From: Candidatus Buchananbacteria bacterium
GTDB lineage: Bacteria; Patescibacteriota; Patescibacteriia; CAIXNZ01
Length of the DNA stretch: 64,000 nt
Reading direction: 5' to 3'
NCBI GenBank assembly: GCA_014729025.1
Contig: WJKP01000014.1
Coordinates: 543-64,542 of the forward strand
This document shows positions 20,451 through 41,812 of this stretch, piece by piece. The notes under the pieces are model-generated. The model did no database searches. It was not told where the DNA came from and was given only the letters and a program-made list of their open reading frames with translations. A program made the translations under genes and the position numbers. Each line of letters begins with the position of its first letter. The first letter of the stretch is position 1.

Positions 20451-22517
20451 TTATTCTAAATGAGCAATTATTTTAATTTGCTCTAATTTATTTTTCAATA
20501 AAGGAAAATTTTTAAAATTATTTTTATCAAAAAATTCCTCAGCTTCTTTTTTAGTCAAATTAATCAAATCCAAATCAGTTAAACTGGCTATTTTTAAATC
20601 CGGCATGCCTGATTGCCTGGTACCATAAACTTCACCAGGTCCGCGAAATTTTAAATCATATTCAGCCAAAGCAAAACCGTCAGCTGACTTAACCAAAGCT
20701 GATAGTCTTTCAGTAGTTTTGTTATTATAATTATCAGTAAACAAAAAACAATAAGATTGATACCCCCCCCTGCCCACTCGACCGCGAAACTGGTGTAATT
20801 GCGCCAAACCAAAACGATCAGCTCCCTCAATCATCATAATAGTGGCATTCGGTATATCAATCCCCACTTCAACTACAGATGTTGAAACTAAAATATTTAT
20901 TTTATTATTTTTAAAATCAAGCATGATTGATTCTTTTTCCTGAGCTTTTAATTTACCATGCAAAAGCCCGATATTGAATTCGGGAAAAATAAATTTATCC
21001 AGCTTTTTAAATTCTTGCTTAACTGATTTAACACCTAATTTATCAGATTCATCAATTAAAGGGCAAATAACAAAAACTTGCCGGCCGTTTTGAATTTCTT
21101 GCCGAATAAACTGATAGGCTTGATTTCTATTTTTTTCAGCAACCAGCTTGGTAATTATTTTTTTACGGCCCAGAGGCATTTGCTTAATCATTGATAATTC
21201 CAAATCACCGTATAAAATCAAGGCTAAAGAGCGCGGTATCGGCGTAGCCGTCATAGAAAGAAAATGAGGAGCTGTTTTATTTAAATTCTTTTCTTTTAAT
21301 TTTTTTCGCTGTTCTACGCCAAAACGATGCTGTTCATCAATAATAACCATGCCTAAATTATTATATTGCAAATCATCCTGAATCAAGGCATGCGTGCCAA
21401 TAATTAAATCCGCCTCACCGTTTTTTATTATTTCTTGAAATTCATCTTTTTTTATTTTTGCTTGGTTATTTAAAATACGCTCGCTACCAGTAAGCAAAAT
21501 AATATTAAAATTAAAATTTTGAAAAAATTTATTTAATGTAATAAAATGCTGTTTAGCCAAAATTTCAGTTGGTGCCATCAAAACAGCCTGTTTCTTATTT
21601 AAAATAACATTTAACATAGCCAGTGCAGCAATCACTGTTTTACCTGAACCCACATCTCCTTCCAATAATCTATTCATTGGTTTGGCTTTTTCCAAATCCA
21701 AAAAAATTTGCCAAGCAGCTTTTTTTTGATCAGCTGTTAATTCAAAAGGTAAAAATTTAACAAAATCAACAATCTCTTTTTCTTTAAATTTAATTTTAGC
21801 CGCCTTATTTCTAGCCAAATAACGCCTAGATAATTGATTATTAGCTTGAATTAAAAAAAGCTCATTAAATTTCAAACGATAAAGAGCTTGCTCTAAAACT
21901 TTAAAATTTTGAGGGAAATGAATTATTGATAAAGCTTGGCTTAAAGATAACAAATTATGTTTTTCTTTAATCTGATTAGGCAACCAATCTTTTATTAATT
22001 TAACTGATTTTAAGGCTTGATTAATTAAAAAACGTATTTGTTTTTGTGTTAAACGACCGGTTACAGAATAAACCGGAATAATTTTTGCGGTATTTAAATT
22101 TTGGCCTTTTTTAGCTTTTTCATAAGCAGGAGAAACAAATTGCAAACCTAAATTATCAAACTCAACTCGGCCTGAAATAAATACTTGATCTCCTGTTTTT
22201 AAATTTTTTATTAAAAATGGCTGATTAAACCAAATAATTTTAATTGAACCGGTTTCATCTTCAATCAAGGCTTCTGTAATAGTTATTTTTTTTCTAAAAC
22301 TACGGCGATTATTAATTAAAATGATTTTACCTTTAACCGTAACTGTTTGATTGGGCAATAATTGATTGATTTTTATAATTTGGCTAAAATCATCATAACG
22401 AAAAGGAAAATAATAAATCAAATCAAAAACAGTATTAATACCGATTTTATTTAAAAGTCGAGCGGTTGTCTTACCAACACTGGTTAATTTTTCAATTGAT
22501 GTCTCTAAATCATACAT
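20451..22517 (-). CDS. recG: ATP-dependent DNA helicase RecG
   Basis: Wedge domain plus helicase motifs DVGSGKT and DEQHRFG. Start moved to the internal Met (MYDLETS...) at 22517; the upstream 17 codons of the track ORF run through a tRNA gene. Confidence 0.9.
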   Translation of the reverse strand: MYDLETSIEKLTSVGKTTARLLNKIGINTVFDLIYYFPFRYDDFSQIIKINQLLPNQTVTVKGKIILINNRRSFRKKITITEALIEDETGSIKIIWFNQPFLIKNLKTGDQVFISGRVEFDNLGLQFVSPAYEKAKKGQNLNTAKIIPVYSVTGRLTQKQIRFLINQALKSVKLIKDWLPNQIKEKHNLLSLSQALSIIHFPQNFKVLEQALYRLKFNELFLIQANNQLSRRYLARNKAAKIKFKEKEIVDFVKFLPFELTADQKKAAWQIFLDLEKAKPMNRLLEGDVGSGKTVIAALAMLNVILNKKQAVLMAPTEILAKQHFITLNKFFQNFNFNIILLTGSERILNNQAKIKKDEFQEIIKNGEADLIIGTHALIQDDLQYNNLGMVIIDEQHRFGVEQRKKLKEKNLNKTAPHFLSMTATPIPRSLALILYGDLELSMIKQMPLGRKKIITKLVAEKNRNQAYQFIRQEIQNGRQVFVICPLIDESDKLGVKSVKQEFKKLDKFIFPEFNIGLLHGKLKAQEKESIMLDFKNNKINILVSTSVVEVGIDIPNATIMMIEGADRFGLAQLHQFRGRVGRGGYQSYCFLFTDNYNNKTTERLSALVKSADGFALAEYDLKFRGPGEVYGTRQSGMPDLKIASLTDLDLINLTKKEAEEFFDKNNFKNFPLLKNKLEQIKIIAHLE

Positions 22518-22527
22518 ATAATTGGGA

Positions 22528-22599
22528 TGCCCCCGGCAGGAATCGAACCTGCATCGCGAGATCCGCAATCTCGTGTTCTATCCGTTGAACTACAGGGAC
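22528..22599 (-). tRNA. tRNA-Arg (anticodon GCG)
   Basis: Hand-folded cloverleaf: acceptor GTCCCTG/CGGGGGC (two G-U), D-arm GTTC/GAAC, anticodon stem CGAGA/TCTCG with loop TTGCGGA, T-arm GCAGG-TTCGATT-CCTGC; CCA not encoded. Confidence 0.65.
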
Positions 22600-23285: not shown

Positions 23286-23376
23286 GGAGAGGTACCCAAG
23301 TGGTTGAAGGGGCGGGTTTGCTAAACCTGTAGGTCGGTTTTATGCCGGCGCGGGGGTTCGAATCCCCCCCTCTCCG
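23286..23376 (+). tRNA. tRNA-Ser (anticodon GCT), type II with long variable arm
   Basis: GGAGAGG acceptor pairs CCTCTCC; anticodon loop TTGCTAA; variable arm stem GTCGG/CCGGC; T-loop TTCGAAT; discriminator G. Confidence 0.85.
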
Positions 23377-23469
23377 CCCGAACCAGAACCATTAATTTTA
23401 AAATTGGAAAAGATAAAAAAAAATATATATTGGATATACTGCAAATTTAGAAAATCGATTCCAACAACA

Positions 23470-23556
23470 TATTTTATCATGGAGAGGTGGCAGAGTGGAC
23501 GAATGCACCGGTCTTGAAAACCGGAGCCCCGGCAACGGGGCCGAGGGTTCGAATCC
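23470..23556 (+). tRNA. tRNA-Ser (anticodon TGA), type II
   Basis: GGAGAGG/CCTCTCC acceptor, anticodon loop CTTGAAA, variable arm CCCCGGCAACGGGG, T-loop TTCGAAT. Confidence 0.85.
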
Positions 23557-23691
23557 CTCCCTCTCCGCAGGAAAAATTTTAGCACTTTTGTGGTGAAATT
23601 TTTTCTTATGTGGAGTAGAAAGGCTGCAGAATCCTCCTCCGTTAAGCCATCGGGCATATTTTTAAATCCAATCCTCTCAGCATAAAAAGTA

Positions 23692-24411
23692 TTAATCCTC
23701 TCTTTGGGCTATTACTAAACCATAAATTTCACTAAAACCTTTTTGTTCTAAAGCTTGAGCTGATTCAATTAAGGTACTGCCAGTTGTTACAACATCATCA
23801 ATTAATAAAATTTTTTTATTTTTTATTGATTCCTGATTATTAAAAATAAAGGCATTTTTAAGATTGGTTTGTCTTTCTTGCCGATTCAAATTAACCTGGC
23901 TCATGGTATTAATTTGCCTAATTAATAAATTTCGTGTAGGGATTTTATAATATACACTTAATTTTTGGGCCAAAAGCTCACTTTGGTTAAAGCCTCTGGC
24001 CAAATAACGCTTTTTATGCAAAGGCACGGGACAAATTATAGTATTATCAAAATTAATTTGAAAAATTTTTAAAATATTATTGGCTTTAAGATACCGAATT
24101 ATCAGATCTCCCAAATAATCGCTAATTTCCTCAACAAAATTATATTTTAAATTATGCAATAAATTTTGCAATATTTGATTATTATAATCAGCTACAACAA
24201 AAACAGCTTTTAAAGCTGTCTTTTTTTTACAATTTTCGCAAATTTGACTATGGTTCGTTTGTTTTTTACATAAAACACAATAAAATTGTTTGTTTAATTC
24301 CAAACGTTTAAAACAAGTGTGGCATAAATAAGTTTCTTCCAAGCCACAACTAATGCATTCTTTAGGAAAAATTAAATCAATAAACCAATCTTTCAATTTT
24401 AATATATCCAT
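23692..24411 (-). CDS. comF: ComF family protein (ComFC; double zinc ribbon plus phosphoribosyltransferase domain); last gene of the T4SS-like operon
   Basis: 239 aa; N-terminal CxxC...CxxC...CxxC...CxxC and C-terminal PRTase motif LLIDDVVTTGSTL. Confidence 0.8.
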   Translation of the reverse strand: MDILKLKDWFIDLIFPKECISCGLEETYLCHTCFKRLELNKQFYCVLCKKQTNHSQICENCKKKTALKAVFVVADYNNQILQNLLHNLKYNFVEEISDYLGDLIIRYLKANNILKIFQINFDNTIICPVPLHKKRYLARGFNQSELLAQKLSVYYKIPTRNLLIRQINTMSQVNLNRQERQTNLKNAFIFNNQESIKNKKILLIDDVVTTGSTLIESAQALEQKGFSEIYGLVIAQRED

Positions 24412-25154: not shown

Positions 25155-27101
25155 TTAAATATCAATTTCTTCCACTCCACCGCCTGTTTTAGGCGGAGTT
25201 TTGGGTTGACTTTCAGCAGATTCAGCTACAGCACCGCCTGATTCTTCTTCAAATTCCCTTTTTGAAGCTTCAATCTCTAATAATTGTTTGGGGTCAGTCG
25301 TAATCAATTGATCTTCACTGTATGAAGCCACTATTTTAATTGCCGCATGCTTTCTACCGGCAAAAAAGATACCTTCACCAACACCACATTCCAAAAGTAA
25401 GTATTTCTCGCCTTCAGTCAATAAAAATACTTTTTGAATATTATCAATCGCTGCAGGTGATTGCTTTAATAGTAATTGCAAAGCTGAATTGGTTACAATT
25501 GCGCGGCCATAAGGACTGTTCAAAAAATCATTTACATCCTGGGTAATAGTAGTTACACCTAAATAATATTTTCTACATCTTTTTACTAAAGCATAAATAA
25601 ATTTTGCTGAATCTTCATGTGTCATTAACCACCAAGCTTCATCAATTACTAAAATTCTTTTCTTTACTTGAGAACGTACTACATTCCAAATATAAGTTAC
25701 GATCGTATATATAGCTATTGGCCTTAATTCATCTTCCAAATCTCTAACGCTAAAACAAACCAACTGATTTCTCATATCAACATTAGTCGGCTGATTAAAT
25801 AAGCCGGAAAAAGTCCCTTCAGTATATTTTCTTAAACGTAAACTCAAATCTTCAGCACCTTCCATGCCTTCCAAAATATTCTGCAAATCCTGCATAATTG
25901 GCGGTTCAATTTTTGCTAAATCAGCTTGTGGCGTAATATCTTTTGAAGCATAAGTTTCTATTAAAGCACGATCCAAAATTGAATCTTCTTCGGTTGTTAA
26001 ATCACCGAGCATTAAACGTAACAAACCTTTTAAAGAAATTACACTGCTTCTAATAATATCTTCTGCGCTGGCATCGCCAACTCCTCTTGGCAAATCAAAC
26101 GGATTAATTTTTTCTTTTGACGCCAAAGAAATATTAACATAAGTTCCGCCAACTGCTTCGGATAAATGCGCGTATTCTCTTTCGGGATCAATAATAATTA
26201 CATCTGTACCTAGCATCATACTTCTTAAAACTTCCAATTTTACGGCGTAACTTTTACCGGCGCCCGAGGTAGCAAAAACAACATAATTGGCATTTTGCAA
26301 TGAAAATCTTTCAAATATAATTAAACTGTTATTATGCCTGTTTACACCGTATAAAATCCCCTCATCAGAAGTTAATTCTGATGAAATAAACGGAAAAGAA
26401 GAAGCAACCGGTGAAGTATTCATGTTAAAAGAAATTAAAAGCTCGTCATTAGCTAACGGAATAGTTGAATTTAAACCTTGTTCTGCCTGATATAAAACTT
26501 TTTTAGTATAAATTAGTTTGCCACCAAAAATTGATTCTACTTCTGAAGTCAACTCGTCTAAATCTTCTTCATTGTTGGCATAAATAGTTGTATATAATGC
26601 AAACTGAAAAAATCTTTCTATCCCTTGGGTTAAATCATCTCTTAATTTTTCAATATCTCGTAAAGCTGTTTCCAAAATAGGATCACGTGGCGCGCCTTTT
26701 TCAATATCTGACATTAATTGAGCCTGTAAATTACCCACCCGTTTTTTTAATTGTTTTAAAATTATTTCTGCTTTTACAGGATAAAAAAACATAGAAACAT
26801 CTAAGGTCTTGCTTAAACTAATTATTGGTGTAAACCAGCCAATAGTTATATAACGAGGATAATTTAAGACAAAAATAGTTCTAACATAAGTATCACCCAA
26901 AATAACATAAGTTGGTTTAACCTTAAAAGCAGCCGGCGCAATTAAATCTTTAACACTGACTTGTCCTTTACGATAAACTTTTTCTTCTTCTAAGGTAATC
27001 TCTTCTGCCTTAACGGCTGCTTCTGCGGATTTTTTTTGCTGATTTTTTTCTTCCTCCCCAGAAGATTGATTTTTTTGAGGTGTTGGTACTTCTAAAGCCA
27101 T
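25155..27101 (-). CDS. virB4: VirB4-family T4SS ATPase (Gram-positive TcpF/Orf16/PrgJ-like), ATPase part
   Basis: 648 aa; IAPAAFKVKPTYVILGDTYVRTIFVLNYPRYITIGWFTPIIS block typical of Firmicutes VirB4 homologs, Walker A SGAGKSY, Walker B VIDEAWWLM, TITQDV motif. Confidence 0.8.
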   Translation of the reverse strand: MALEVPTPQKNQSSGEEEKNQQKKSAEAAVKAEEITLEEEKVYRKGQVSVKDLIAPAAFKVKPTYVILGDTYVRTIFVLNYPRYITIGWFTPIISLSKTLDVSMFFYPVKAEIILKQLKKRVGNLQAQLMSDIEKGAPRDPILETALRDIEKLRDDLTQGIERFFQFALYTTIYANNEEDLDELTSEVESIFGGKLIYTKKVLYQAEQGLNSTIPLANDELLISFNMNTSPVASSFPFISSELTSDEGILYGVNRHNNSLIIFERFSLQNANYVVFATSGAGKSYAVKLEVLRSMMLGTDVIIIDPEREYAHLSEAVGGTYVNISLASKEKINPFDLPRGVGDASAEDIIRSSVISLKGLLRLMLGDLTTEEDSILDRALIETYASKDITPQADLAKIEPPIMQDLQNILEGMEGAEDLSLRLRKYTEGTFSGLFNQPTNVDMRNQLVCFSVRDLEDELRPIAIYTIVTYIWNVVRSQVKKRILVIDEAWWLMTHEDSAKFIYALVKRCRKYYLGVTTITQDVNDFLNSPYGRAIVTNSALQLLLKQSPAAIDNIQKVFLLTEGEKYLLLECGVGEGIFFAGRKHAAIKIVASYSEDQLITTDPKQLLEIEASKREFEEESGGAVAESAESQPKTPPKTGGGVEEIDI

Positions 27102-27112
27102 ATTTTATAAAA

Positions 27113-27766
27113 TTATTGTTCTATACGAAGTTTATTAATATCGCGTAATTTTTGATTTTGGCTGGTTCTTGGATTATAAACATTATAATATAATTCAATC
27201 AGACTCTGAGTATCTAAAACAGCGGTTTCTAAACCCATGCCTCTTAAATTTGACTGAATATTATTGATTCTTAAGCGCAAATCCTCTTTATATTCTAAAA
27301 ATTTTTCTCTCTTAATTTTTATCAATTTACCAGGTGTAAATAATTCTTTTAATCTTGTCCAAAAACTTTTGGATTTATCACCTAAAGGATCATAAGGGAT
27401 TACAATAAAAAAGCTTTTAGTCATGATTTCGCCTATTTCAATTAATTCTTGGATATATTCTATATAACTGTTTATTTGTACTTTTAATAGGTCGTTAGTC
27501 TGTTTTTTTCTCGCTTCATTTAATCTTCTTAAATAACCTTCAATATCTAATTGCCTAGACTGAATAACTATTTGCATAGGATGATCTAATGAATTTAAAA
27601 ACTGCATATAACCGCTGATTAAAGCTTTTTGTTCATCTTCTGATTTTAATGCGAAATTAATACTGGAACATAAAATAACTGAACGTAAAGTACCGTCTTT
27701 TAAAATAACCACTCCTTCTCTGATTTCGGCAATATCCAAGTGTTTTTGGGTTGTATTTTTTGCCAT
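27113..27766 (-). CDS. VirB4 N-terminal (CagE/TrbE/VirB-type) domain encoded as a separate ORF
   Basis: 217 aa; ILKDGTLRSVILCSSINFALKSEDEQKALISGYMQFLNSLDHPMQIVIQS resembles the conserved N-terminal block of VirB4 proteins; 11-nt gap and different frame to the ATPase ORF. Confidence 0.5.
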   Translation of the reverse strand: MAKNTTQKHLDIAEIREGVVILKDGTLRSVILCSSINFALKSEDEQKALISGYMQFLNSLDHPMQIVIQSRQLDIEGYLRRLNEARKKQTNDLLKVQINSYIEYIQELIEIGEIMTKSFFIVIPYDPLGDKSKSFWTRLKELFTPGKLIKIKREKFLEYKEDLRLRINNIQSNLRGMGLETAVLDTQSLIELYYNVYNPRTSQNQKLRDINKLRIEQ

Positions 27767-27774
27767 AAATAAAA

Positions 27775-28206
27775 TTATTTAATTATTTCTTCTTCCCTAA
27801 AAGCACCGCCTGTATTAACAACCAAAGATAAAGAAGATAATTTATCACCGACCAAAGGTTCTTTGGGCGTAAATTTTTCTTCCTCTTTTTTTTCTTCTTT
27901 TTTGGGCAATTCAGTTATTTCTGTTTTACCCCATAGTCTTAAATTAGGTCTTTTTAAGGTCTGAACTAAATTTAAAAAGAAATAATGAAAAGGCATACCA
28001 TTGACTTTAAAAAAAGCTATCATGCCAAAAATTGCGGTTGTTAATAAAGCAACAATTATAAAAGTAGTAAAATAAAACATTTTATAAAAAATAAAATCCA
28101 ACATACCGGCCACCATCATAATAAAAAATTGCCGAGTCGTAATTGGACCAATAATTTTACTTTCAACATCAATAAATTGTGGTACTAAAAATTGATCAAA
28201 AGCCAT
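27775..28206 (-). CDS. Small 2-TM membrane protein, VirB3-like by position and topology
   Basis: 143 aa; two adjacent TM helices, charged C-terminus; sits just upstream of the VirB4 ORFs as VirB3 does. Confidence 0.35.
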   Translation of the reverse strand: MAFDQFLVPQFIDVESKIIGPITTRQFFIMMVAGMLDFIFYKMFYFTTFIIVALLTTAIFGMIAFFKVNGMPFHYFFLNLVQTLKRPNLRLWGKTEITELPKKEEKKEEEKFTPKEPLVGDKLSSLSLVVNTGGAFREEEIIK

Positions 28207-28209
28207 AAA

Positions 28210-29760
28210 TTAATATTTTAAATTTTTATTTAATTCCATTATTGATTTAAATTCTAATAATTCTAATTCATCTGTCTCTTCAATCACTTGTTCAAAAGAT
28301 TTACCTTGATTAATTGCCTTATTCATTATATCGGCATAAATTTTATAAAGCGGGCTTTTCTTCAAAGCTTTAATCCCCTCAACTTTTTTAACTAATGATT
28401 CATCTTCCAATAAATTAAGTTTTTCTTTTAATTTAGAAGTTGCTTCCTGGGGATCTTTGGATAAACGCCGAAAATCAGCGATTGTAAAAGACGCTAATTC
28501 TTCAATCGGACCGTATAACCTTGGGGTAAATTTAACATCTTCTACTTTTGGCCGGCCACCTTGTTTTTCTTGTTTTTTAAAAATCGGCTGCTGAGAAACT
28601 TGTTTGTCTGCTGGTGGCGTTTGCGATTCAGCTGGAGCTTGACTTGTTACCTCATTTTTTTTAATTGATTCTTTTTTTGCTACAGTAACTTGAGATTGTT
28701 TATCCTGCGCTATTCCTTTTTTAGCTTTTACTGAAGTAGGTGTATCTTGAATTGAGTTTGGTGCAAAATCAAAATCAGCAAACGGATCTTTTTCTTTAGC
28801 CGACAAATTGACGTTTTTTTCTATACCTGGCTCTTTTTTTTCTTCTTTAGCCGAATCTGACTGAGCTGCCATAGGCGGTGGCGGAGCTAACTCTTCATTT
28901 GTCTCTAAAAAATCTTCTTTATCTTCTATTTTATCAGCTAAATCCGCAGATTCTTCTTTTTTTTCAATAAACTCTTCTTTTTCTTTTAATTCCCGTTTAA
29001 TTGCTTCTTTATGAGCCAATTCTTCAAACTCGACGCCTTGATCTTTTAACAATTGATCAATAGTCACTTCTTCCCCGGTAGTTTTTTCAGGCTTTGTCTC
29101 CGGCTTAACTGGTTTTGATTCAACATCTATATTAGTTTCCTGTACAACATCGGATTTAGGCATAACAAATTCTTCTGGCAAACTTTTTTCATATTCGGCA
29201 ATAACTTCATTAATATCAACATCTTCTTTTTCCATTTCTTCTTTTTTAACTTCTAATAAATCCCGTAATTTATAAAAACTTTCTTCAGGCATACCAACTC
29301 CCCCAATTTTGTCTGAACGGGTCATTACTTCTTTTAATTCAGCAAAATCACGAACATCCTTTAACCAACTAACCAAAGCTTCTAAAAATCTTTGTCTGAT
29401 ATTATCATTTTTAATTTTAAATTCCGGCAACTTGGCTAATAATTCATCGGTCATTATTGGCGGACTGAATTTATTTGCAGTTTTATCTTGTAAATTTTTT
29501 TTGATCGGTTCTAATTTTTCTTGTTTATCAAGTATTGAGGTTTTTAAATCATACGCCAAATCACCGGCTTTATTAAAATCAAGCTCTAATTTATCGCTAA
29601 ATAATTCAATTAAATCAAGTGGTTGCACCTTACCTAAAATAGCGTCAATTAAAATCTCCAATACTTTATCTTTATTTTCTAATTCATAATCTTGTAGAAT
29701 TTTTTTTAAATCATTGCTCAAATCACCGAAATCTTCTATTTTAAATTTATTGTCAGTCAT
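28210..29760 (-). CDS. Hypothetical acidic soluble protein (Glu/Lys-rich, coiled-coil-prone)
   Basis: 516 aa; no TM, no recognisable motifs; 3-nt gap to the next gene. Confidence 0.4.
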   Translation of the reverse strand: MTDNKFKIEDFGDLSNDLKKILQDYELENKDKVLEILIDAILGKVQPLDLIELFSDKLELDFNKAGDLAYDLKTSILDKQEKLEPIKKNLQDKTANKFSPPIMTDELLAKLPEFKIKNDNIRQRFLEALVSWLKDVRDFAELKEVMTRSDKIGGVGMPEESFYKLRDLLEVKKEEMEKEDVDINEVIAEYEKSLPEEFVMPKSDVVQETNIDVESKPVKPETKPEKTTGEEVTIDQLLKDQGVEFEELAHKEAIKRELKEKEEFIEKKEESADLADKIEDKEDFLETNEELAPPPPMAAQSDSAKEEKKEPGIEKNVNLSAKEKDPFADFDFAPNSIQDTPTSVKAKKGIAQDKQSQVTVAKKESIKKNEVTSQAPAESQTPPADKQVSQQPIFKKQEKQGGRPKVEDVKFTPRLYGPIEELASFTIADFRRLSKDPQEATSKLKEKLNLLEDESLVKKVEGIKALKKSPLYKIYADIMNKAINQGKSFEQVIEETDELELLEFKSIMELNKNLKY

Positions 29761-29774
29761 AAAATATATTAATT

Positions 29775-32700
29775 TTAAGGAGTAGAGCCTTTTTTCTTTT
29801 CGCTTACCTTATAACCAATTTTTTTCATTTTACTTTTGAATTTCGCTAATTCACCATTAAAAGCTTTTGAATTAGGAGCTGTTTGTAAAGCTGATATTAA
29901 ATTATTAAATTCCTGTTCTACTAAATTGGGATCGATACTGTCTTCATTGAGAGCACCTCCTGTTATTTCATCTTTCAAATGCTTAATAAGTCCGTCTACT
30001 TTAAATTGCATTCTACTTGGATCTTTATTACCTTTTTCAAACTGCTCTTGAATTGAATCAGCATAATTACGCATTTTAACTGAAGCTGATTTCTTTAATT
30101 CTTCTGTATCTCTATGTCTATCTTTAATTTTTGATTCATTCTCAATTAATACTTCGGCTGTTTTGGTCGCATTAGAACCTTTCAATCCTGTATTATCGGA
30201 AATTTGCTTAGCTATAACTTTTATACGCTCCTGCTTATCTTGCTCCTCCTCAGTTGCTTCTAACATCTCAAAAGCTTCGTCGTCAATATATTTTACAGCT
30301 TGTTGCTTTGCAGTTGCTGAAGCGGCTGGTGGCATAACATTTTTCACATTATCTTCAATAACAGCTCGTGCGCCTTCTTTTTTTCTAATTTTATTAATTT
30401 TTTGGGCAATATTTTTATTTTTCGTACCCTCTTTTTGAACACGACCGTCATCATCATATTCGGCACTGACCGCTTTATATAATTTTTGGTGTCTTTCTAA
30501 TTCTGGGGCTGACAGATTAGCTGTTTGATCATCCATTTTTTTATAATATTTTTCGATCCTGGCTTCCCATTGGCTATCAGTTTCTGATAGACCTGTTGTC
30601 GGATCAATTCTGCGATGTAAGCTTTGATCAAAATGTTGTTTATTGTTTTCAATAATTTCTCTTCGCTCAGCATTATTTTGCGCAAAACGCATTTCTTCTT
30701 TAACTTTAACATTGGCACGCGAAGGATCATCCCAGCCTGAAACACTGGCTACTTTATAAGTCAAGCCGTCCATCTCTGCACCTGCAAAATCTGGAGATTC
30801 ACTTGGATCACCAAAATCTTTTTGCTTGGCTATCTTATTAGCTTGATCATCACTCACACTGGCCGTGCCTTCACGAACTTCTTTCCTTTTACTTTGTAAA
30901 ACATCACCCAATCTGGCCACATTATAAAAATCAGAACCAATATCAGTACCACTGCTTACCAAATTTTGTAAAGCTTCTTGTTTGTCTTGAGATAAATCCT
31001 TAAAAGCCTTTGAGCTTGTATCAAGTTTATAAGTACCGTCGTTATTTTTTTCAGTAATACTTTTCATTTCAACATCACTTAAATCGACTGCGTTACCACT
31101 ATTATCTACGGCATTACGCATAGAAGCCTCGCCTCTTTGTTCTAAGTCACTTAAATCTTCATATTCATTAGTTTCTTCATTATAAACCAATGAAGAAAAA
31201 GCTTTTTTCCTACCAGTTGATTTTTCCACTCGGTCTTCCATGTCTTCTAAAAATAATTGTTTTTCTAATTTATCCTTATCCTTAAAAAAACCTGCTTGTT
31301 GTAGCTGTTTAACTTCTTTATTGGTTAATTTACCATTATCAGCCAACGTCTGAGCATAAAATTCCATGGCTTCTTTATTTTTACTTACTGCATCTAAATC
31401 CTTAACATTACCGTCTTCATCTATATTAGTTTCACCCCCTAAAATTTCTTTTTTAAATTGTTTTTTAACTTCTGCGGCATTTTTTTTATTGATATCCGTC
31501 CTTGTTTCACCATAAGCTTCAGCATGCTTAGCATCAGTCTCTCTTTTTGTTGCACTACCTACAATCGGTTTTTTTATTGCTGCTTGTAATTTTTCCATTC
31601 CTCTAGCCCTTCCTGCCTTAGTTAAATATTTACCCACACGAGACCGTTCTAATCTTTGAGCTCCGGCTTCTCTAGTAGCACCTACTAAAGGCTTGGCTGC
31701 TCTACCAGCCCATCTAGCTGGGGCTGTTACGGCTCTGGCTGATCGTCTAGCACCTCTTTCCAGTGTATTTTGGGCGGTATTTTTCATTTTATCTGCGGCT
31801 CGGCCAGCCATTCCAGAACCAGCTACGGCAAATTCTTGAGAAAATTTTAAACCACCCACTAACATAAGAATCCCCATCATAATAGAAATCATATTATCCA
31901 TGCTACCGGCTTTACTATTAAGAATCTGCTGGCCTTGTCGTTTCCCAAAATCATATTGATCACTTGGTACCATTTGATCATGATTAAGATTAACCATGGT
32001 TAAAAGTGCTAGCCAAAGAAAAAAAGCCATAAAAGGACCGATCATACAATAATTGAAAAATTGCCCCCACCATTTACTGGCCAAAGAACCGACAGTACCA
32101 CCTTGTCCTTGAAAAACCCAAGCAAAAAAAGCTAATGGAGAAAAAACAACCAAAGCCCATAAAGCAACTATTCTAAAAGCCAAAATTATACAAAAAATTA
32201 ATAAAACAATCAAAGTAACTACAGTATAAATTAAACCTAAAATAGATGCAGCTATCATGGTTAGTCCTTCATTCCAATCTATTTTATCTTCTAAAGCACC
32301 AATGGGATCCTCAGCTATTCGAAACCAATCGGTCATGGCTAAACCTTTAAAAATATTACCGGCCGAAATATCCTTATAAGCATTAACAAAAGTTATCATT
32401 AAAACTTGGAAAAAATCTATAATTAAACCGCAAATAGTCTTGCTAAAATTTACCAAAATTGCCATAATCAATAGCCTGGCCAAAAGCTTATTCCATTGAT
32501 ATTTTTCAATTTTTAAAACAGTCACAAAAGCAATAAAAAGTAAGCCTAAAATAAAAAACATGTTAACCAAGTCACGCAAAATTACCCAGCCTTCATTAAC
32601 ATAGGGATTATCAATAAACCGATTATACATACTTATCCATACAATAACTTCCATCAGCAATATAACCAATTCCCCACAGAGCTGTGTCAAAACACCAATC

Positions 32701-32987
32701 AAAAAAACAAGACCACGAATAATAACAGTCCAAGCATTAGTAACGATCGATTTGCCTAATTCAGCAGCACCCTCTTTGACTTTAGCCTTAGCAGCGGATT
32801 GACCGGCACCCAAAAGTGCTTGGCCTATTGTAACGGCCGCTTGGATTTGAGCGTTGGCTTCTTTTATTTCTGATTTAAAATTAAATTCATTATCAATATC
32901 AATACTAATATTAAAAAATGTTAATAAAAAAAGAAAAAATAAAGGTATTATGATTATGTTTTTATGTTTTTTAAAAAAATTCAACAT
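29775..32987 (-). CDS. VirB6/TrbL-like polytopic membrane protein with about 650-aa charged C-terminal extension
   Basis: 1070 aa; signal/TM plus about 8-10 TM helices in the first 400 aa, then a long hydrophilic K/E-rich tail, as in extended VirB6 proteins. Confidence 0.5.
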   Translation of the reverse strand: MLNFFKKHKNIIIIPLFFLFLLTFFNISIDIDNEFNFKSEIKEANAQIQAAVTIGQALLGAGQSAAKAKVKEGAAELGKSIVTNAWTVIIRGLVFLIGVLTQLCGELVILLMEVIVWISMYNRFIDNPYVNEGWVILRDLVNMFFILGLLFIAFVTVLKIEKYQWNKLLARLLIMAILVNFSKTICGLIIDFFQVLMITFVNAYKDISAGNIFKGLAMTDWFRIAEDPIGALEDKIDWNEGLTMIAASILGLIYTVVTLIVLLIFCIILAFRIVALWALVVFSPLAFFAWVFQGQGGTVGSLASKWWGQFFNYCMIGPFMAFFLWLALLTMVNLNHDQMVPSDQYDFGKRQGQQILNSKAGSMDNMISIMMGILMLVGGLKFSQEFAVAGSGMAGRAADKMKNTAQNTLERGARRSARAVTAPARWAGRAAKPLVGATREAGAQRLERSRVGKYLTKAGRARGMEKLQAAIKKPIVGSATKRETDAKHAEAYGETRTDINKKNAAEVKKQFKKEILGGETNIDEDGNVKDLDAVSKNKEAMEFYAQTLADNGKLTNKEVKQLQQAGFFKDKDKLEKQLFLEDMEDRVEKSTGRKKAFSSLVYNEETNEYEDLSDLEQRGEASMRNAVDNSGNAVDLSDVEMKSITEKNNDGTYKLDTSSKAFKDLSQDKQEALQNLVSSGTDIGSDFYNVARLGDVLQSKRKEVREGTASVSDDQANKIAKQKDFGDPSESPDFAGAEMDGLTYKVASVSGWDDPSRANVKVKEEMRFAQNNAERREIIENNKQHFDQSLHRRIDPTTGLSETDSQWEARIEKYYKKMDDQTANLSAPELERHQKLYKAVSAEYDDDGRVQKEGTKNKNIAQKINKIRKKEGARAVIEDNVKNVMPPAASATAKQQAVKYIDDEAFEMLEATEEEQDKQERIKVIAKQISDNTGLKGSNATKTAEVLIENESKIKDRHRDTEELKKSASVKMRNYADSIQEQFEKGNKDPSRMQFKVDGLIKHLKDEITGGALNEDSIDPNLVEQEFNNLISALQTAPNSKAFNGELAKFKSKMKKIGYKVSEKKKGSTP

Positions 32988-32995
32988 AAGTTATT

Positions 32996-35900
32996 TTATT
33001 GGTAATCTTCTAAATTAATTAAAAATGGATAAAAAGTTATACAGGCATAAGGCTGATAATTATTATTCGTATCATATAAATCATTAAAAATGCCGTTATA
33101 AACCGGATTTAAAGTATCAAATTCCAAACACATACCTTCCAACCCATTAACCTCTGTCATGGTCTCTATTTCTGATGTATCCTCACAATCAGGATCTGGT
33201 AATGCTCCTTTTAATGTCTCTGGGGCATAACAAAGATTATTATTGGTTGGCTCATCAGGAAAATAGGTTGTAACTCCGCCGGCTTTAACTTCATAATAAT
33301 TGCACATATTACCCAAGGTATCTGGACTGGTTGACGGACTATAAGTATTTAAAATATTTTTATATTCTTGCTGTTGAGATAATTGAAAGGGCAAGGGTGA
33401 ACTTTTTTCCGGGAATATTTTGCAAATCGGTTCGGTATAGCGTTCATCATCTAAATTGCCTAACTCATTAACAACAGGGTATTGGTCAAATTGTTTATTT
33501 AATTCAGCTTCAATTGGGAATCTTTCCGGAATAGTATACCCTGAATAATCACCAGCTCGCCATTGAGTCAGCCTGGTTAATTCTCCAGCGCCAAAACGAT
33601 AAATATAACCGCTTTTACTTTCATAATCACTTATCCGCTTTACAACAATGGGATCAGAATCTAGATTATAACGCACATTATCTTTTTTAGGTGAAAATTT
33701 GGTACATTCACCGGCAAACTCTTCACGGCATAAATCAATTTCAGTACAAAAACCATTACTATCTTTTTCAGCACAAATTGCCCATTCAGCGCAATTGCGA
33801 TCTTTTTTAACTTTTAAAATCTCATTGGTATTATTAAAAGTATTTAAAAATTCAACACAGCCTTGATTCCAATCAACATTGGTACAAGCTGAACGATTAA
33901 TATCATTACCAGCATCTATTACAAAATAACTGTCTTCTGTATTATCTTTTATCTCTATTTGATCATAAAGAATATAAGAACTTGGACAATTTCCTTCATC
34001 AGTCCTTACATTTTCATTACGCGGCGCATAAATAATCACTTCATAATTTTGCAAATCGTCATATTCAATCCAATCATTAACTGGCTGATTATTTTCATCA
34101 ACAACTGATTCACAGTCAAGTTTGCTTGTAAAATTAGGATCTGAACATTCACCATGAGGAACCGTAAATAAAATCTCTACTTTTTTCCAGTCAGTTTCCG
34201 CCTCATAATTATAAGCTAAACCTGGTTCAGTATTGTTTTGATCAATATAACGATTAATCGCAATTGTCGCTTCAGGCAAAGGACAATCATCACCTTTACC
34301 TTGAGCGTCAGCCGGTACTTTATAATAAAAACTGGCTTTATAAGTTTTACCTTTTTCCAAAAAGGCTACTTTTTGTTTAATGCCAAAACTTGGCACCACA
34401 TCTTCATCCAATTCACAATCAGGATTATCACGAATATAAGTGCTTGGACAATCTTGCGTAGTATTTTTTATTAATTTAACGGCTTTTGAACCCGATTTAA
34501 CATCATCAGTTTCTATTTGTTGATTGCCGGCATCGGCTGCTATAGTTGTCCAACTTGAAAGGCGACCATCTGGATTAAATTCAAAGCTACCATTAGCTAC
34601 ATAATTAGGATTAATATCAACAAATTCATTGCAACCATCCCAGCGGTCATCACATTCACCGACATAACCTTTATATTTATTGGCTTCAAAAACTTTATAA
34701 ATAGTAAAAGGTGTAGCCAAACATTGCCCGCTATCAAGCCATTCGCCGTTTCCTAAAACACAAGATTCCTGATCATTGATATCATTTAAAATAACTGTAC
34801 ATTGATCATAATCAAGACTCCAGCCACCACCATTGGCTTCACACTCTTCTGGAGTATTATAAGCCAAAGAACCGCAACCCAAAGTTTGACTGCCTTTTTT
34901 AAACCAACCTTTAACGTTTTGGTTATTAACGATTTTTTCACCGTATTGACATAATTTAGTCGGTTCAATTTTATAATATTCAGGACTTCCCAATTCATTG
35001 ACTAATTCAGTGCAACCTAAACCTTGGTGACTGCACATAGTTGCTTGAGGTACATTAATATATCGGTCCGGATTATTTTTTAAATATATATCTTCAAAAC
35101 CGGTATTTTGCAAACCTTCAAAAATCGGTCGGCCAAATCTTTGACAACCTTTATTATTAGACGAGCACCGATAATTATCATCTAAAACCAATGTGATTAA
35201 TTCATCGCTTGGGACCTGATAATCATCCAAATAAGTCGTATTATCATTATTAAAATTCTGCTGATTAGGATTGATTGAATTTTGAGTATCCATTAAAACT
35301 TGACAGCCAACCGCACTTTCACGGCATAAATTAGTAAAAGATTTTAAATTATGCCTTTGCCCTAATGAATCATCATAAGCTTGGCAGCCTAACATGGGAT
35401 GGGGATCATTAGGGTCTTTGACGCCAAAAATATTTCTATCACAGCTATCCGGAGTAAACCAGCTATTTTTGAGCACATAAACATTATCGCGAATAACCCT
35501 AAGGGCAATATTATCCAAATAAATCGGTGTATCTATTTCAGTAAAAACTAATCGATTATCAGTTACATCTGACCAGCTAACCAAAACCGGTCCCAGATTA
35601 TAATTTTGCCATTCATCAGTCAATGTAATTTGATTATCAACTGAAGCAAATTCTTCTAAAGTTGTCTGATCTTCATCTGCTGTAGCAGTACTAAATCTTA
35701 TACTTATATCTTCACTTTGACCGGCTGATTTAGCCCAAAATGATAAAGTATAAAGATTACCTTGCTGAATATCAACCTGTTTATTAATACTATTAAATTC
35801 TGAGGGCACAAATAATGAATGGCCACCGACTTGAACTGACTCACCAACCATAGTTAAGCCACTACCTTGCTCAGACAAACCACTATACCAATCCAATTGA

Positions 35901-38900
35901 CCCTGCTCAAAATTGTCAAAAACTTGCATATAAACATTATTCCCCTGATTGCCAATAAAAGCCCGGCAACCATTAGCCTCAGCCCGGCAACTAATACCTT
36001 CGCTAGGAATAGCGTCATAAAGACAAGCATTTATATCACCTTGCCAGCGACCATTAGTAACCAAACAATTTTCTTCTGTTGATTCTGTTTTTCTATAAGG
36101 ATGGCAATCCTCGGATACAGAAATAGTTTTTCTAATATCACGATAATATTCATTGCCTTGATTATCAAAAAAATTAATACAATTAAAATCATTTTCTCCA
36201 ATCGTCAAACGACAATCACCTTCACCATCAATTATTTTTGGGGCGCCGGTCTGCTCATCTTGCTGAAATTCATATCTGACCAATTGCGGCGGGCCGCTAG
36301 ACGAACCTTGCCAACTAAAAAATGTTTTCTCCCCTAAATCAAGGTCAGGCCTAATACATTGTCTTAAATAAGTAAAATATTCTATACCTTCACCGCCTTG
36401 AGCAACTTCGTCTAAATTAGTAAATTGAGCACAACCAACTTCAGCGTAACTACATTGAGTTGCGGTTTCTGGAATAAAATAATGATAAAGCGGATCAGGC
36501 TCTGGTTCATATAAAGCTGCTTCCTGCTTATAAGTATCATAACCAACACATTCCGCGGGGCAATAATCAGTCGCACTAACTACGCCCGGTATATCAGGCC
36601 CGCCAGCTAATGGCGTATAAAGTTGACAGCCAGCTTCCTCTGCTAGACATATTTTGGAAAAATTATCACAAGCATCAGCGTCAGGTGCGTATTGATAACA
36701 ATCAATACTGTCTTTATATATTAATTCTTCATCCCAATAACCATTATTAGCTTGACAATTTTGTTTGGTTAATGGAGAAATATCTAAAACTGGAGCAGGA
36801 TCACCTTCGCCATACCCCTGACAATTTAAACGTTCTGGTGGCTTTTTATAATAAACTTTGCTGTTTAATTCATAATCCTGATACTGAGAAATAAAATTAT
36901 AATTTCTGACCTGTTCAATAGTATTAAGCGACAAATCAAGACCATCAACATAAACCGTGGCACCTGTCTGGCCGCCAGGTAAATTTAACCAAACATCCAG
37001 CTGCGTACCAGCATTAGTAGTAATTAAAGTACTATCAACTTGTGAATAAAATTCCGTGGCATAAATTTCATTACTATTAATTTCCTGATCACCGCCTAAA
37101 TAAGTTTTTACAAGATTAAAACCAATCGGTTGATTTAAGCTTTGATTGGCTGCAATATAAGCTGTTGCCGTATAAACATCACCGCCTTTGGTTAATATTT
37201 TATTATTATCATTAAAACTACTAGTATAGACTAATTGCAATTCTTCATTATCACCTAAATTACTGATATCTATTTCTAGTCGGCTCAACCCGCTATAAAC
37301 ATTAGAACCTTCTTTAGAAACCTGAGCCAAATCACTAAACGGGCCGTATCCGCGCCATTCACCTAAAAAATCATCACATTGATTTTTATTTTGCGGATTA
37401 TTAACTCGGTCATCAGAACCATACAAAGCAGCTCCCTGACAGAATTCTGACCAACTGGCATTATCATTGGCTAAACAATCTGCTTCCGATTGTAATTCGG
37501 GTTCATTTTTAACAACACCTTCAATTTGGCATTGCTCTACCCAAGCACCGCCATGGTTTAAACATTTATCTTCGGCGCTAACACCACCCTCATCAGTAAA
37601 TTGCGGGTTTGCGCATAAATTATATTTTAAAACACTATAAATACACGTTCTTTGATAATTACCGCCAGAGGCCAAACAATCGGTTTCATCAACATCCCTA
37701 TTAACTGCTACCTGACAAACATTAATCCAATTGGCTCCAGCTGCCAAACAATCTGCTTCTGTTTGACTTACCCCATCATTACAAATACTTTCCCAAGTCC
37801 CACCATTATTCAAACAAGTTACTTGATCAGCATAATTATAATCCAAACATATTTCATTATATCTACCATCCAATGATTCGCATTCACCCTCACCAGTAAC
37901 TCTGGCTTTTAATCTTAAATCCCAATTTTGGGGAAAATAACCTTGCTGAGTGTATTCAAAACTAGAATCAGTTACTAAATTATTATTAGGCTCACGATAT
38001 AAGAAAAATTCATTACAGCCCTCTTGATTCCGATCACAAATTTCCGCATAACGATTTAAATAAATTCTTTCAGATGCGCAACCTTGACCTTCTACCCAAG
38101 TCCCGTCAATGGCTGGGTCTGTACAAGTTGAATCATCAAATTCAGAAAAATCTTTCCATAATCCAGCTACGGTTTTAGTTGCATACCAAATACAACCGGC
38201 ATTATAATCACCGCAAGTATCACTACCGCTTAAAGTATTTTTTAAATAAGAAACTGACCGAGTACCTTGAGCATCAGTCAATGTATAGGTCCGACAACTA
38301 TTAAATTCTTCCGGGCAAGAGTCAGCTGTAAACTGCCAACTATTTTCTTCTTTAACACAAATGCCATAATCTTCATCAACACAACCACCTCGATCATCTT
38401 CTTTTAAACAGCTAGCAAAATCAGGACAGCTTGAATATCGCTGACCGGTTGAATTCGTAACCAATAACTCGTTATAAGGCTCCAGATCTGTTTTTAAAGC
38501 GCATTTGGTAGCTGGTAATTTTAAAACCCAATTAGGATCAACTAAATTACAAAACGGCGATTCATCAATATCAAAATCACCGCAACGACCTGAACCAGCT
38601 TTATAAAAACCATTAACTACATCGGCTAAAGTCGCATTAACAACTTGATTTAATTTTTGTTGATTATAAGCTTTGATTTCATCTAAATCTTCTGCGCCAA
38701 ACCCGGCATACGGTTTAAAAATACAATTCCTTAATTTTTGAGTTTTATAAGGTTCAACATCAAATAAATTGTAACCATAACGTGAACAATCAGTCCCAGC
38801 GTCACAAATGTCTTGGAATTCATCATAATCGATTTCTTGCCTATAATTACAATCTCTAATTAATTCAGCTGCCAATTCTAAGCCTAAGGGCACTACTCTG

Positions 38901-40948: not shown

Positions 40949-41812
40949 TTAAGTAGCGTTCAAAGTCTCTAAAAATAACTGCTTCAATGTTTCATCATCA
41001 ATCTGCTCTAATAAACTTTTATCTATACCTCTTTGTTCTAATTCTTGACGAATTTCATCCGGTGATAACTCTTTTAATTCTTCTTTAATGGGTTCTTTTT
41101 CTTCTGAACTTAATTGCTCTGCTTCTTGAGCTTGTAATTCTCTAGCCTGATCAAGCATTTCTTGTAACTGAGGATCATTAAGCCCTAATTCCTCTAAAGT
41201 AATTTCTCCAGATAATAATTGGGTTTGTAATTCTAATAAATCCGAATCTAAAACTGCTGAATCTGATGAACCTAATTCGTCCATTTGATTTGTATTAGCA
41301 AAATTCTCTTGCTCTTGCTCATAAAATTGTTCATTTTCCATATCTGTTGGTGCTTCATCTGTTATTTGCGGCCCATAACATTCTTCTCCTTCGGGACAAG
41401 CCGGATCAGTACCTTGAACAATTTCTTCCTTATCCAAAAGACCATCACCATCAGTATCTTCTAAATAAGCACTGGTTTTATAAAGATAAATTTCACTATA
41501 ATCACTTAATCCATCCAAATCACTATCTTGTTTTTGCAATTTAGCAGTTTCCTCTTCTGTTGTTGCTTCATTTGTATTTGCAACTTGATATTGTTGCCTT
41601 AATTCGCCTCGTTTTTCTCTTAAATAACTGGAATATAAGGGCTCTTCAATATTTTTTTTAAACTGTAAATAACCTAAAACTGCGGCAGAAATTGTAATTA
41701 ATACCAAAAAAAATACGAAAAATTTCTCCATTGGAGTTTTTTCTATTTTATTCGTGATTTTTTCGCTTTTTTGTTCAAAAAAATTTTTAATTCTTTCTTT
41801 TTCTTCTGGCAT
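40949..41812 (-). CDS. Membrane-anchored acidic protein with thrombospondin-type-3-like Ca-binding motif; first gene of the operon
   Basis: 287 aa; N-terminal TM; DSDLDGLSDYSE...DTDGDGLLDKEE (DxDxDG) repeats; acidic coiled-coil tail. Confidence 0.4.
   Translation of the reverse strand: MPEEKERIKNFFEQKSEKITNKIEKTPMEKFFVFFLVLITISAAVLGYLQFKKNIEEPLYSSYLREKRGELRQQYQVANTNEATTEEETAKLQKQDSDLDGLSDYSEIYLYKTSAYLEDTDGDGLLDKEEIVQGTDPACPEGEECYGPQITDEAPTDMENEQFYEQEQENFANTNQMDELGSSDSAVLDSDLLELQTQLLSGEITLEELGLNDPQLQEMLDQARELQAQEAEQLSSEEKEPIKEELKELSPDEIRQELEQRGIDKSLLEQIDDETLKQLFLETLNAT

Follow-up and report, generated by a model that had tools for sequence, protein, structure and literature searches.

Evidence for a naturally split VirB4 ATPase in the type IV secretion locus of a Candidatus Buchananbacteria genome

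In a 64,000-nucleotide (nt) stretch of the genome of a Candidatus Buchananbacteria bacterium (Patescibacteriota; assembly GCA_014729025.1, contig WJKP01000014.1, positions 543 to 64,542; hereafter the window), the VirB4 ATPase of a type IV secretion system (T4SS) is encoded by two adjacent open reading frames (ORFs). Our analysis indicates, with a probability that we place at about 0.9, that these ORFs represent a naturally split VirB4, in which a TrsD-family N-terminal piece and a second polypeptide carrying the rest of the N-terminal domain together with the hexameric RecA-like ATPase are translated separately from one operon and would reassemble non-covalently. The split is an ancient, conserved two-gene form of VirB4. 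Both ORFs start with ATG and lie in different frames, and the elements concerned are as follows:

27113..27766, minus strand: N-ORF, a TrsD-like protein of 217 amino acids (aa), equivalent to the first half of the VirB4 N-terminal domain (NCBIfam matches, homologue lengths, a fused relative, AlphaFold2 (AF2) and Foldseek, and the ratio of nonsynonymous to synonymous differences, pN/pS)
27102..27112, minus strand: intergenic spacer TTTTATAAAAT, 11 nt from the TAA stop of the N-ORF to the ATG of the C-ORF, lacking a Shine-Dalgarno sequence; in the frame of the C-ORF, a TAA stands one codon ahead of that ATG
25155..27101, minus strand: C-ORF, a VirB4-family ATPase of 648 aa without the first ~200 residues (NF045971, P-loop_TraG, 4AG5, Walker motifs)

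An earlier sequence-only reading of this locus had described ORFs of 217 and 648 aa in different frames with an 11-nt gap, and the coordinates and spacer given above confirm that description. The peptide blocks it quoted are present, and the C-ORF begins, as it had stated, with a charged, low-complexity stretch, which extends over about 45 residues.

Homology and colinearity of the two ORFs with VirB4

The C-ORF encodes a genuine ATPase of the VirB4 family. It matched the NCBIfam model NF045971 (VirB4-like conjugal transfer ATPase, CD1110 family) over positions 170-730 of 752 with 365 bits against a cut-off of 325 (E-value 7.6e-109), the mycoplasma VirB4 model (VirB4_plasma) over positions 292-892 of 894, and Pfam P-loop_TraG with an E-value of 8e-28. 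Residues 243-601 aligned with the C-terminal domain of T. pseudethanolicus VirB4 (PDB 4AG5; E-value 8.9e-46), and residues 272-575 were matched to TrwK in a PDB sequence search (E-value 5e-7). The Walker motifs that the sequence-only reading had located in this ORF are both intact, with Walker A (SGAGKS) at residues 279-284 and Walker B within LVIDEAWW at residues 484-491, and residues G280, A281, G282, K283, S284, D487 and E488 were invariant when 112 homologues were compared. Since the matches to the CD1110 and mycoplasma models begin only at positions 170 and 292, respectively, a complete N-terminal domain of ~400 residues is not present on the C-ORF polypeptide.

The N-ORF, in turn, matched VirB4_plasma over positions 102-287 of 894 (E-value 3e-10), the CD1110 VirB4 model over positions 11-100 of 752 (E-value 6.6e-7) and NF041427 (TrsD/TraD family conjugative transfer protein) over positions 21-143 of 201 (E-value 5.8e-9). 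Because the NCBIfam model ranges of the two ORFs are complementary, the pair is colinear with a full-length VirB4, and these alignments show that each ORF is truly homologous to VirB4 and that the two follow in a single order. The alignment of both ORFs to full-length VirB4 had been proposed in the sequence-only reading, and it establishes that the 217-aa protein does have homology to the VirB4 N-terminal region. That reading had not assigned the protein to a named family, and the NF041427 match and the published description of TrsD in Patescibacteria (PMC12102498) identify it as TrsD-like. The gene also has the TrsD/TraD layout, being small, stand-alone and located directly upstream, on the same strand, of an N-terminally short VirB4. 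By contrast, the "VirB4/CagE/TrbE" block attributed to the 217-aa ORF does not correspond to Pfam CagE_TrbE_VirB (PF03135), which was matched by neither ORF at an E-value of 0.1 or below, and the match of the N-ORF to Pfam TraC_F_IV was weak and below the cut-off (E-value 0.0026).

The concatenated ORFs agree in domain content, order and Walker motifs with full-length VirB4 proteins such as TrwK of R388 (PDB 7O41, 7O43 and 8RTB), the CD1110 protein and the VirB4 of the mycoplasma integrative and conjugative element. Unlike the window pair, these proteins are single polypeptides of 750-900 aa, and the diderm representatives have no detectable sequence similarity to the N-ORF, whose modest likeness to diderm VirB4 appears only in the predicted fold.

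A naturally fused form provides further evidence of colinearity. A 797-aa TrsD-VirB4 protein from Candidatus Colwellbacteria (P0360) aligned at its residues 8-211 with N-ORF residues 6-201 (38% identity) and at its residues 226-791 with C-ORF residues 46-610 (51% identity), leaving 14 residues between the two matched regions. The fused form was found on three separate Candidatus Colwellbacteria metagenome-assembled genome (MAG) contigs (P0360, P0391 and P0392) and is therefore not a one-off artefact; it looks like a lineage-specific fusion or re-fusion. It demonstrates that the two parts can function within a single chain and, as classic Rosetta-stone support, suggests that the two polypeptides of the window would reassemble into a VirB4-equivalent protomer.

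Predicted structure and position of the cut

The AF2 model of the N-ORF reached a predicted local distance difference test score (pLDDT) of 78 and a predicted template modeling score (pTM) of 0.68, with disordered ends at residues 1-8 and 209-217. When this model was compared with the PDB using Foldseek, each of the 14 best matches was a TrwK/VirB4 chain from the T4SS of R388, with probabilities of 0.97-1.00 over ~200 aligned columns, and the matches ranked after them had probabilities of 0.25 or less. These results lend modest support to a VirB4 N-domain fold for the modeled N-ORF, whose predicted structure may resemble that of TrwK.

In TrwK the N-terminal domain spans residues 15-400 and is wrapped by VirB3 (PMC9259494). 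The alignment with 4AG5 places the start of the ATPase domain at about C-ORF residue 243, and residues ~45-242 of the C-ORF therefore belong to the VirB4 N-terminal domain. The C-ORF thus begins with a variable charged tail (residues 1-45), which is followed by the remaining half of the N-terminal domain (~45-242), then by the C-terminal, RecA-like ATPase domain (~243-601) and finally by an acidic, proline-rich C-terminal tail; its first ~45 residues are charged, of low complexity and poorly conserved, and the alignments of relatives begin at about residues 20-46. On this sequence-based delimitation, the N-domain corresponds to the N-ORF (~205 aa) together with residues ~45-242 of the C-ORF (~200 aa). 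The division thus falls within the VirB4 N-terminal domain of ~400 residues, cutting it into two halves at a flexible linker, and does not part the N-domain from the ATPase. Hence, the label "N-terminal domain plus ATPase" used in the sequence-only reading holds for the VirB4 N-terminal homology of the 217-aa ORF but not for the position of the division.

The order of secondary-structure elements in the predicted models of the N-ORF and of C-ORF residues 59-192 is similar, which hinted that a segment had been duplicated in tandem within the VirB4 N-terminal domain; this idea was rejected, as it had no support at the sequence level (hhalign probability 0.1%).

The junction and its conservation in Patescibacteria

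A conventional explanation for two adjacent ORFs in different frames, with lengths that sum to a normal VirB4, is a single virB4 gene broken by an indel, either as a sequencing or assembly error or as recent pseudogenization, which might leave the T4SS non-functional; the existence of full-length fused VirB4 in related systems (the CD1110 and mycoplasma models and the Colwellbacteria protein) is compatible with it. The geometry of the junction, however, argues against such a lesion. The N-ORF frame closes before the C-ORF frame opens, both frames have a TAA inside the 14-nt stretch formed by the stop codon and the spacer, and the C-ORF frame contains more stops further upstream of the TAA that precedes its ATG. 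Neither a single indel nor a simple ribosomal frameshift can therefore join the ORFs, and a fusion would require at least two changes.

The comparison of orthologous loci, which the sequence-only reading had also put forward, revealed the same split throughout. An independent assembly with 96% and 92% identity carries the same pair (217 and 643 aa). The best 120 homologues of the N-ORF, with identities down to 56%, were all stand-alone proteins of 192-251 aa, and the best 120 homologues of the C-ORF all had 624-691 aa, so that every one of these sequences has the length expected of the split form. An exhaustive search with the N-ORF against 1.84 billion cluster representatives retrieved 2548 matching proteins; among the best 150 of these, which represent clusters at 50% identity, 149 had 132-443 aa and the single long one was the Colwellbacteria fusion. 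We also examined 80 loci fetched from species-representative genomes of Buchanan-, Falkow-, Uhr-, Magasanik-, Kuenen- and Kerfeldbacteria, Paceibacterota, Saccharibacteria and Gracilibacteria. Both halves were separate ORFs in all 79 loci that hold both, and the genes were tightly adjacent in 79 of the 80.

Across these 79 loci the junctions ranged from an overlap of 59 nt (-59) to a gap of 171 nt (+171), with a modal gap of 2 nt; the relative frames 0, 1 and 2 occurred in 19, 25 and 35 loci, respectively, and the N-ORF ended with TAA in 54, TAG in 19 and TGA in 6. This varied geometry indicates that the split has been maintained through a long divergence and does not stem from one recent lesion. 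Moreover, both ORFs are under strong purifying selection, with pN of 0.11-0.29 against saturated pS of 0.6-1.0 in nine pairwise comparisons (pN 0.14-0.29 against pS 0.6-1.0 for the N-ORF alone), and the ratio of nonsynonymous to synonymous substitution rates (dN/dS) lies well under 1 for each half. With the catalytic motifs invariant and the same break present on Firmicutes plasmids (see below), a frameshift artefact or recent pseudogene is so improbable that it can practically be set aside. Of the two possibilities left standing by the sequence-only reading, a genuine split or a frameshift, the former is thus strongly supported and the latter is refuted by the junction geometry, the universal split, the purifying selection and the intact motifs.

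Programmed recoding, by which frameshifting or stop read-through would yield a fused VirB4 besides or instead of the two products, is also very improbable, although slightly less remote than a broken gene. Short intergenic distances are common, as the modal gap indicates, and in 11 of the 19 loci with both halves in the same frame a single stop lies between them, which would be compatible with it. Nevertheless, several of the same-frame loci have 2-7 intervening stops, the open frames of the window do not overlap, with a TAA in each of them within 14 nt, and the C-ORF has a conserved ATG of its own. Furthermore, the length, frame and stop codon of the junction vary so freely that a conserved slippery site or recoding context is impossible.

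Some features of individual homologues can be recorded here. Many TrsD-like homologues bear N- or C-terminal extensions of 100-200 residues (for example P0247, 443 aa; P0258, 432 aa; P0292, 417 aa; and Saccharibacteria loci L066-L071), and the compact 217-aa N-ORF of the window contrasts with them. Two loci appear locally degraded or mis-assembled: in one (L001) only 192 aa remain of the TrsD-like ORF, with five in-frame stops between it and virB4, and in the other (L010, from a long-read MAG) VirB4 homology begins only at query residue 73 within a short open frame.

Shared break point on plasmids outside Patescibacteria

The gene directly upstream of the N-ORF connects the window to a group of plasmid-borne systems:

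27775..28206, minus strand: PrgI-family (VirB3-like) membrane protein (Pfam PrgI, PF12666; E-value 4.6e-9; 37.1 bits, with the cut-off at 27), with one strong hydrophobic segment

A tblastn search with the N-ORF detected relatives on 61 plasmids, mostly from Clostridium and Bacillus-group genera, and where a plasmid encodes one of the closest VirB4 relatives, a relative of the N-ORF lies on the same strand, 16 nt to ~450 nt away. In the Pontibacillus plasmid NZ_CP062975, a 274-aa "hypothetical protein" precedes a 621-aa CD1110-family VirB4 with an overlap of 11 nt. The alignment of the small protein covers N-ORF residues 5-216, and the protein ends 13 residues beyond it (32% identity; tblastn 31.5%), and the VirB4 aligned from its own residue 13 to C-ORF residue 32 (33% identity; tblastn 33.9%). 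Plasmid pCBG of C. botulinum (NZ_CP006909) encodes PrgI, a 257-aa "TraC family protein" and a 620-aa ATPase with the break point seen in the window, and in a Planococcus plasmid a small gene annotated as TrsD lies next to a DUF87 ATPase. According to these alignments, the window pair and the Firmicutes plasmids share the break point.

The PrgI/"TraC family protein"/VirB4 (CD1110) clusters of Firmicutes and Actinobacteria megaplasmids (Pontibacillus, pCBG, Priestia and Miltoncostaea) are the closest relatives of both halves outside Patescibacteria. Their break point and gene order are identical to those of the window, but they are plasmid-borne, their ORFs overlap by 11 nt where the window has an 11-nt gap, and their small protein is longer (257-274 aa). 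The TrsD/TrsE pair of the staphylococcal plasmid pGO1 and the TraD/TraE-type pairs of the MPF-FATA class likewise place a small protein directly upstream of a VirB4 ATPase of ~620-670 aa. In contrast with the window, those pairs belong to plasmid-borne conjugation machines with a relaxase and a coupling protein, and the N-ORF is only a remote relative of their small proteins. In addition, the VirB3 homologue of pGO1 is TrsC rather than PrgI (Guglielmini, 2014; PMC4027160). TrsD is absent by name from the main text of that paper, and the statement relating TrsD to VirB4 is taken here from PMC12102498, which cites it.

A broader evolutionary scenario may be entertained tentatively, although we consider it doubtful. 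The shared break point could be a rare genomic change that marks a so far unmodeled sub-lineage of MPF-FATA, with a PrgI-type VirB3, a TrsD-like half-domain and a CD1110-type VirB4, which is seen on Firmicutes and Actinobacteria megaplasmids and might have been the donor of the Patescibacteria T4SS. The separate half-domain could then be functionally exploited, for instance through VirB3 docking that is independent of the ATPase ring or through a different stoichiometry, with Colwellbacteria representing a secondary re-fusion and Gracilibacteria an uncoupled state.

Proposed assembly and published context

Under the interpretation of a naturally split VirB4, the operon would be read in the order PrgI/VirB3, TrsD-like protein and VirB4, each half being translated separately. 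The gaps in this run are 8 nt (PrgI to N-ORF) and 11 nt (N-ORF to C-ORF), and such tight spacing suggests that translation of the two halves is probably coupled. A Shine-Dalgarno-like leader was found for none of the 13 genes of the operon region, and the G+C content of the window is 32%. The TrsD-like and ATPase polypeptides would then reassemble non-covalently into a VirB4-equivalent protomer, in which the TrsD-like piece would supply the membrane-proximal surface wrapped by VirB3/PrgI. The PrgI-family protein, presumably the docking partner of the TrsD-like piece, may through this contact tether the ATPase ring to the translocon of the T4SS that Patescibacteria encode on the chromosome.

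Several observations weigh against this interpretation. The scores of the N-ORF lie far under the curated cut-off of every NCBIfam model that it matched (36-38 bits against 200-590), including NF041427 (36.1 bits against 200). Since it is below all family cut-offs, we treat it as a remote relative and call it "TrsD-like" with reference to the MPF-FATA TrsD profile applied in PMC12102498. Moreover, the N-ORF had no sequence match to TrwK among PDB chains, either as a single sequence or as a profile of 115 sequences. The Foldseek likeness is modest (query-normalized TM-score 0.34-0.45, E-value ~1e-3), the matched part of TrwK was not reported by the tool, and the C-ORF yielded a poor AF2 model (pLDDT 59.7), which was left out of the fold search. 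Finally, TrsD of Gracilibacteria is not next to virB4, an exception to the usual adjacency (PMC12102498), and at a Candidatus Gracilibacteria locus of our set (L064, JANQKP010000001.1) a TrsD homologue with 45% identity had no VirB4 homologue detected within 4 kb on either side by tblastn, a search run under genetic code 11 whereas this lineage recodes UGA. This locus agrees with the published exception and would fit a more independent role of TrsD.

These Gracilibacteria homologues, together with the many homologues that have 100-200 extra residues and reach 443 aa, would fit the reading that the TrsD-like protein is an independent accessory factor, such as an assembly chaperone, a regulator or an adaptor, that descended from the VirB4 N-terminus but no longer completes the VirB4 N-terminal domain. 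We regard this as unlikely, yet more plausible than either a broken gene or recoding. Against it, VirB4 proteins of the C-ORF type are without exactly the segment that TrsD supplies, with the same break point in Patescibacteria and Firmicutes; the natural fusion restores a single colinear chain; and the genes are tightly adjacent in all but one of the 80 loci.

The two-gene arrangement of VirB4 is already known for Patescibacteria and some Gram-positive plasmids. Quiñonero-Coronel et al. (2025; PMC12102498) described TrsD as remotely homologous to the N-terminal portion of VirB4 and ranked it first in abundance among the T4SS components of Patescibacteria. In that study, in which TrsD was given no assigned function, 2272 Patescibacteria matches were obtained with the MPF-FATA TrsD hidden Markov model of CONJScan/MacSyFinder, 1664 of them associated with (encoded near) virB4; the Southlakia copy was listed as essential, and the Patescibacteria VirB4 clade was found to be related to the monoderm MPF-FATA class. 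Ca. Southlakia epibionticum cannot grow as an epibiont without its T4SS locus, in which coupling and relaxase proteins are not recognizable (Wang et al., 2023; PMC10633639). Similarly, no relaxase or coupling protein was found among the ORFs of the window that were scanned, and the context is that of chromosomal housekeeping genes. The window locus, which exact protein matches assign to a Candidatus Buchananbacteria MAG, shares with the published chromosomal TrsD and VirB4 pairs (PMC12102498; PMC10633639) the phylum, the PrgI/VirB3-TrsD-like-VirB4 order and the chromosomal setting, without substantive difference, and it is therefore one more instance of them.

What the current analysis adds is the explicit colinearity of the pair, a break point shared with the PrgI-using Firmicutes megaplasmids, the junction geometries over 79 loci and the fused Colwellbacteria variant. 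The colinearity, the shared break point and the fusion make the reading of a split VirB4 explicit, and our results are otherwise incremental to published work. Regarding annotation, the locus should not carry a flag for a disrupted or pseudogenized virB4, and the motor of the T4SS in this Buchananbacteria genome appears to be intact. Besides, because this type of T4SS is essential for epibiotic growth in the sole Patescibacteria species tested (PMC10633639), the TrsD-like gene should be seen as an integral part of the VirB4 motor and not as a hypothetical protein.

Neighboring genes in the window

The remaining genes around the pair, all on the minus strand, are listed below from the head of the T4SS operon to its downstream flank:

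40949..41812, minus strand: 287-aa transmembrane protein that contains a TSP3 repeat
32996..40909, minus strand: giant protein of 2637 aa, anchored at its N-terminus and containing a CBM_4_9 carbohydrate-binding domain
29775..32987, minus strand: 1070-aa polytopic membrane protein, VirB6-like candidate, with ~7 hydrophobic segments in the first 330 residues, a highly charged tail of ~700 residues and no Pfam match
28210..29760, minus strand: 516-aa acidic, low-complexity protein between the VirB6-like gene and prgI, without a family match or transmembrane segment
24450..25118, minus strand: 222-aa bitopic protein directly downstream of virB4, with one N-terminal transmembrane segment and only weak matches (IcmG/DotF, Mbov_0395 pilin-like, FliL)
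23692..24411, minus strand: ComF-like protein with a double zinc ribbon and a phosphoribosyltransferase domain, encoded right after the T4SS genes in the same orientation

The 2637-aa and 287-aa proteins, whose genes stand at the head of the T4SS operon, may be surface adhesins associated with the T4SS machine. Topology and position point to the 1070-aa protein as a VirB6-like candidate with an extended C-terminal domain, and the 222-aa protein could be an unrecognized T4SS component, for example a VirB8-like one.

Small ORFs at 53.8-60.1 kb were considered as possible pilins and rejected, given that their translations, compared by eye and for the most part without a profile search, resemble unrelated housekeeping genes (MsrA-, MsrB-, TspO- and HAD-like). 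A 105-aa ORF on the minus strand (23340..23657) is spurious, as it overlaps two tRNA-Ser genes on the plus strand (23286..23568). Additionally, a tRNA-Arg gene on the minus strand (22528..22599) covers the TTG codon given as the start of the RecG ORF (20451..22568), so that the true start of RecG must lie further downstream.

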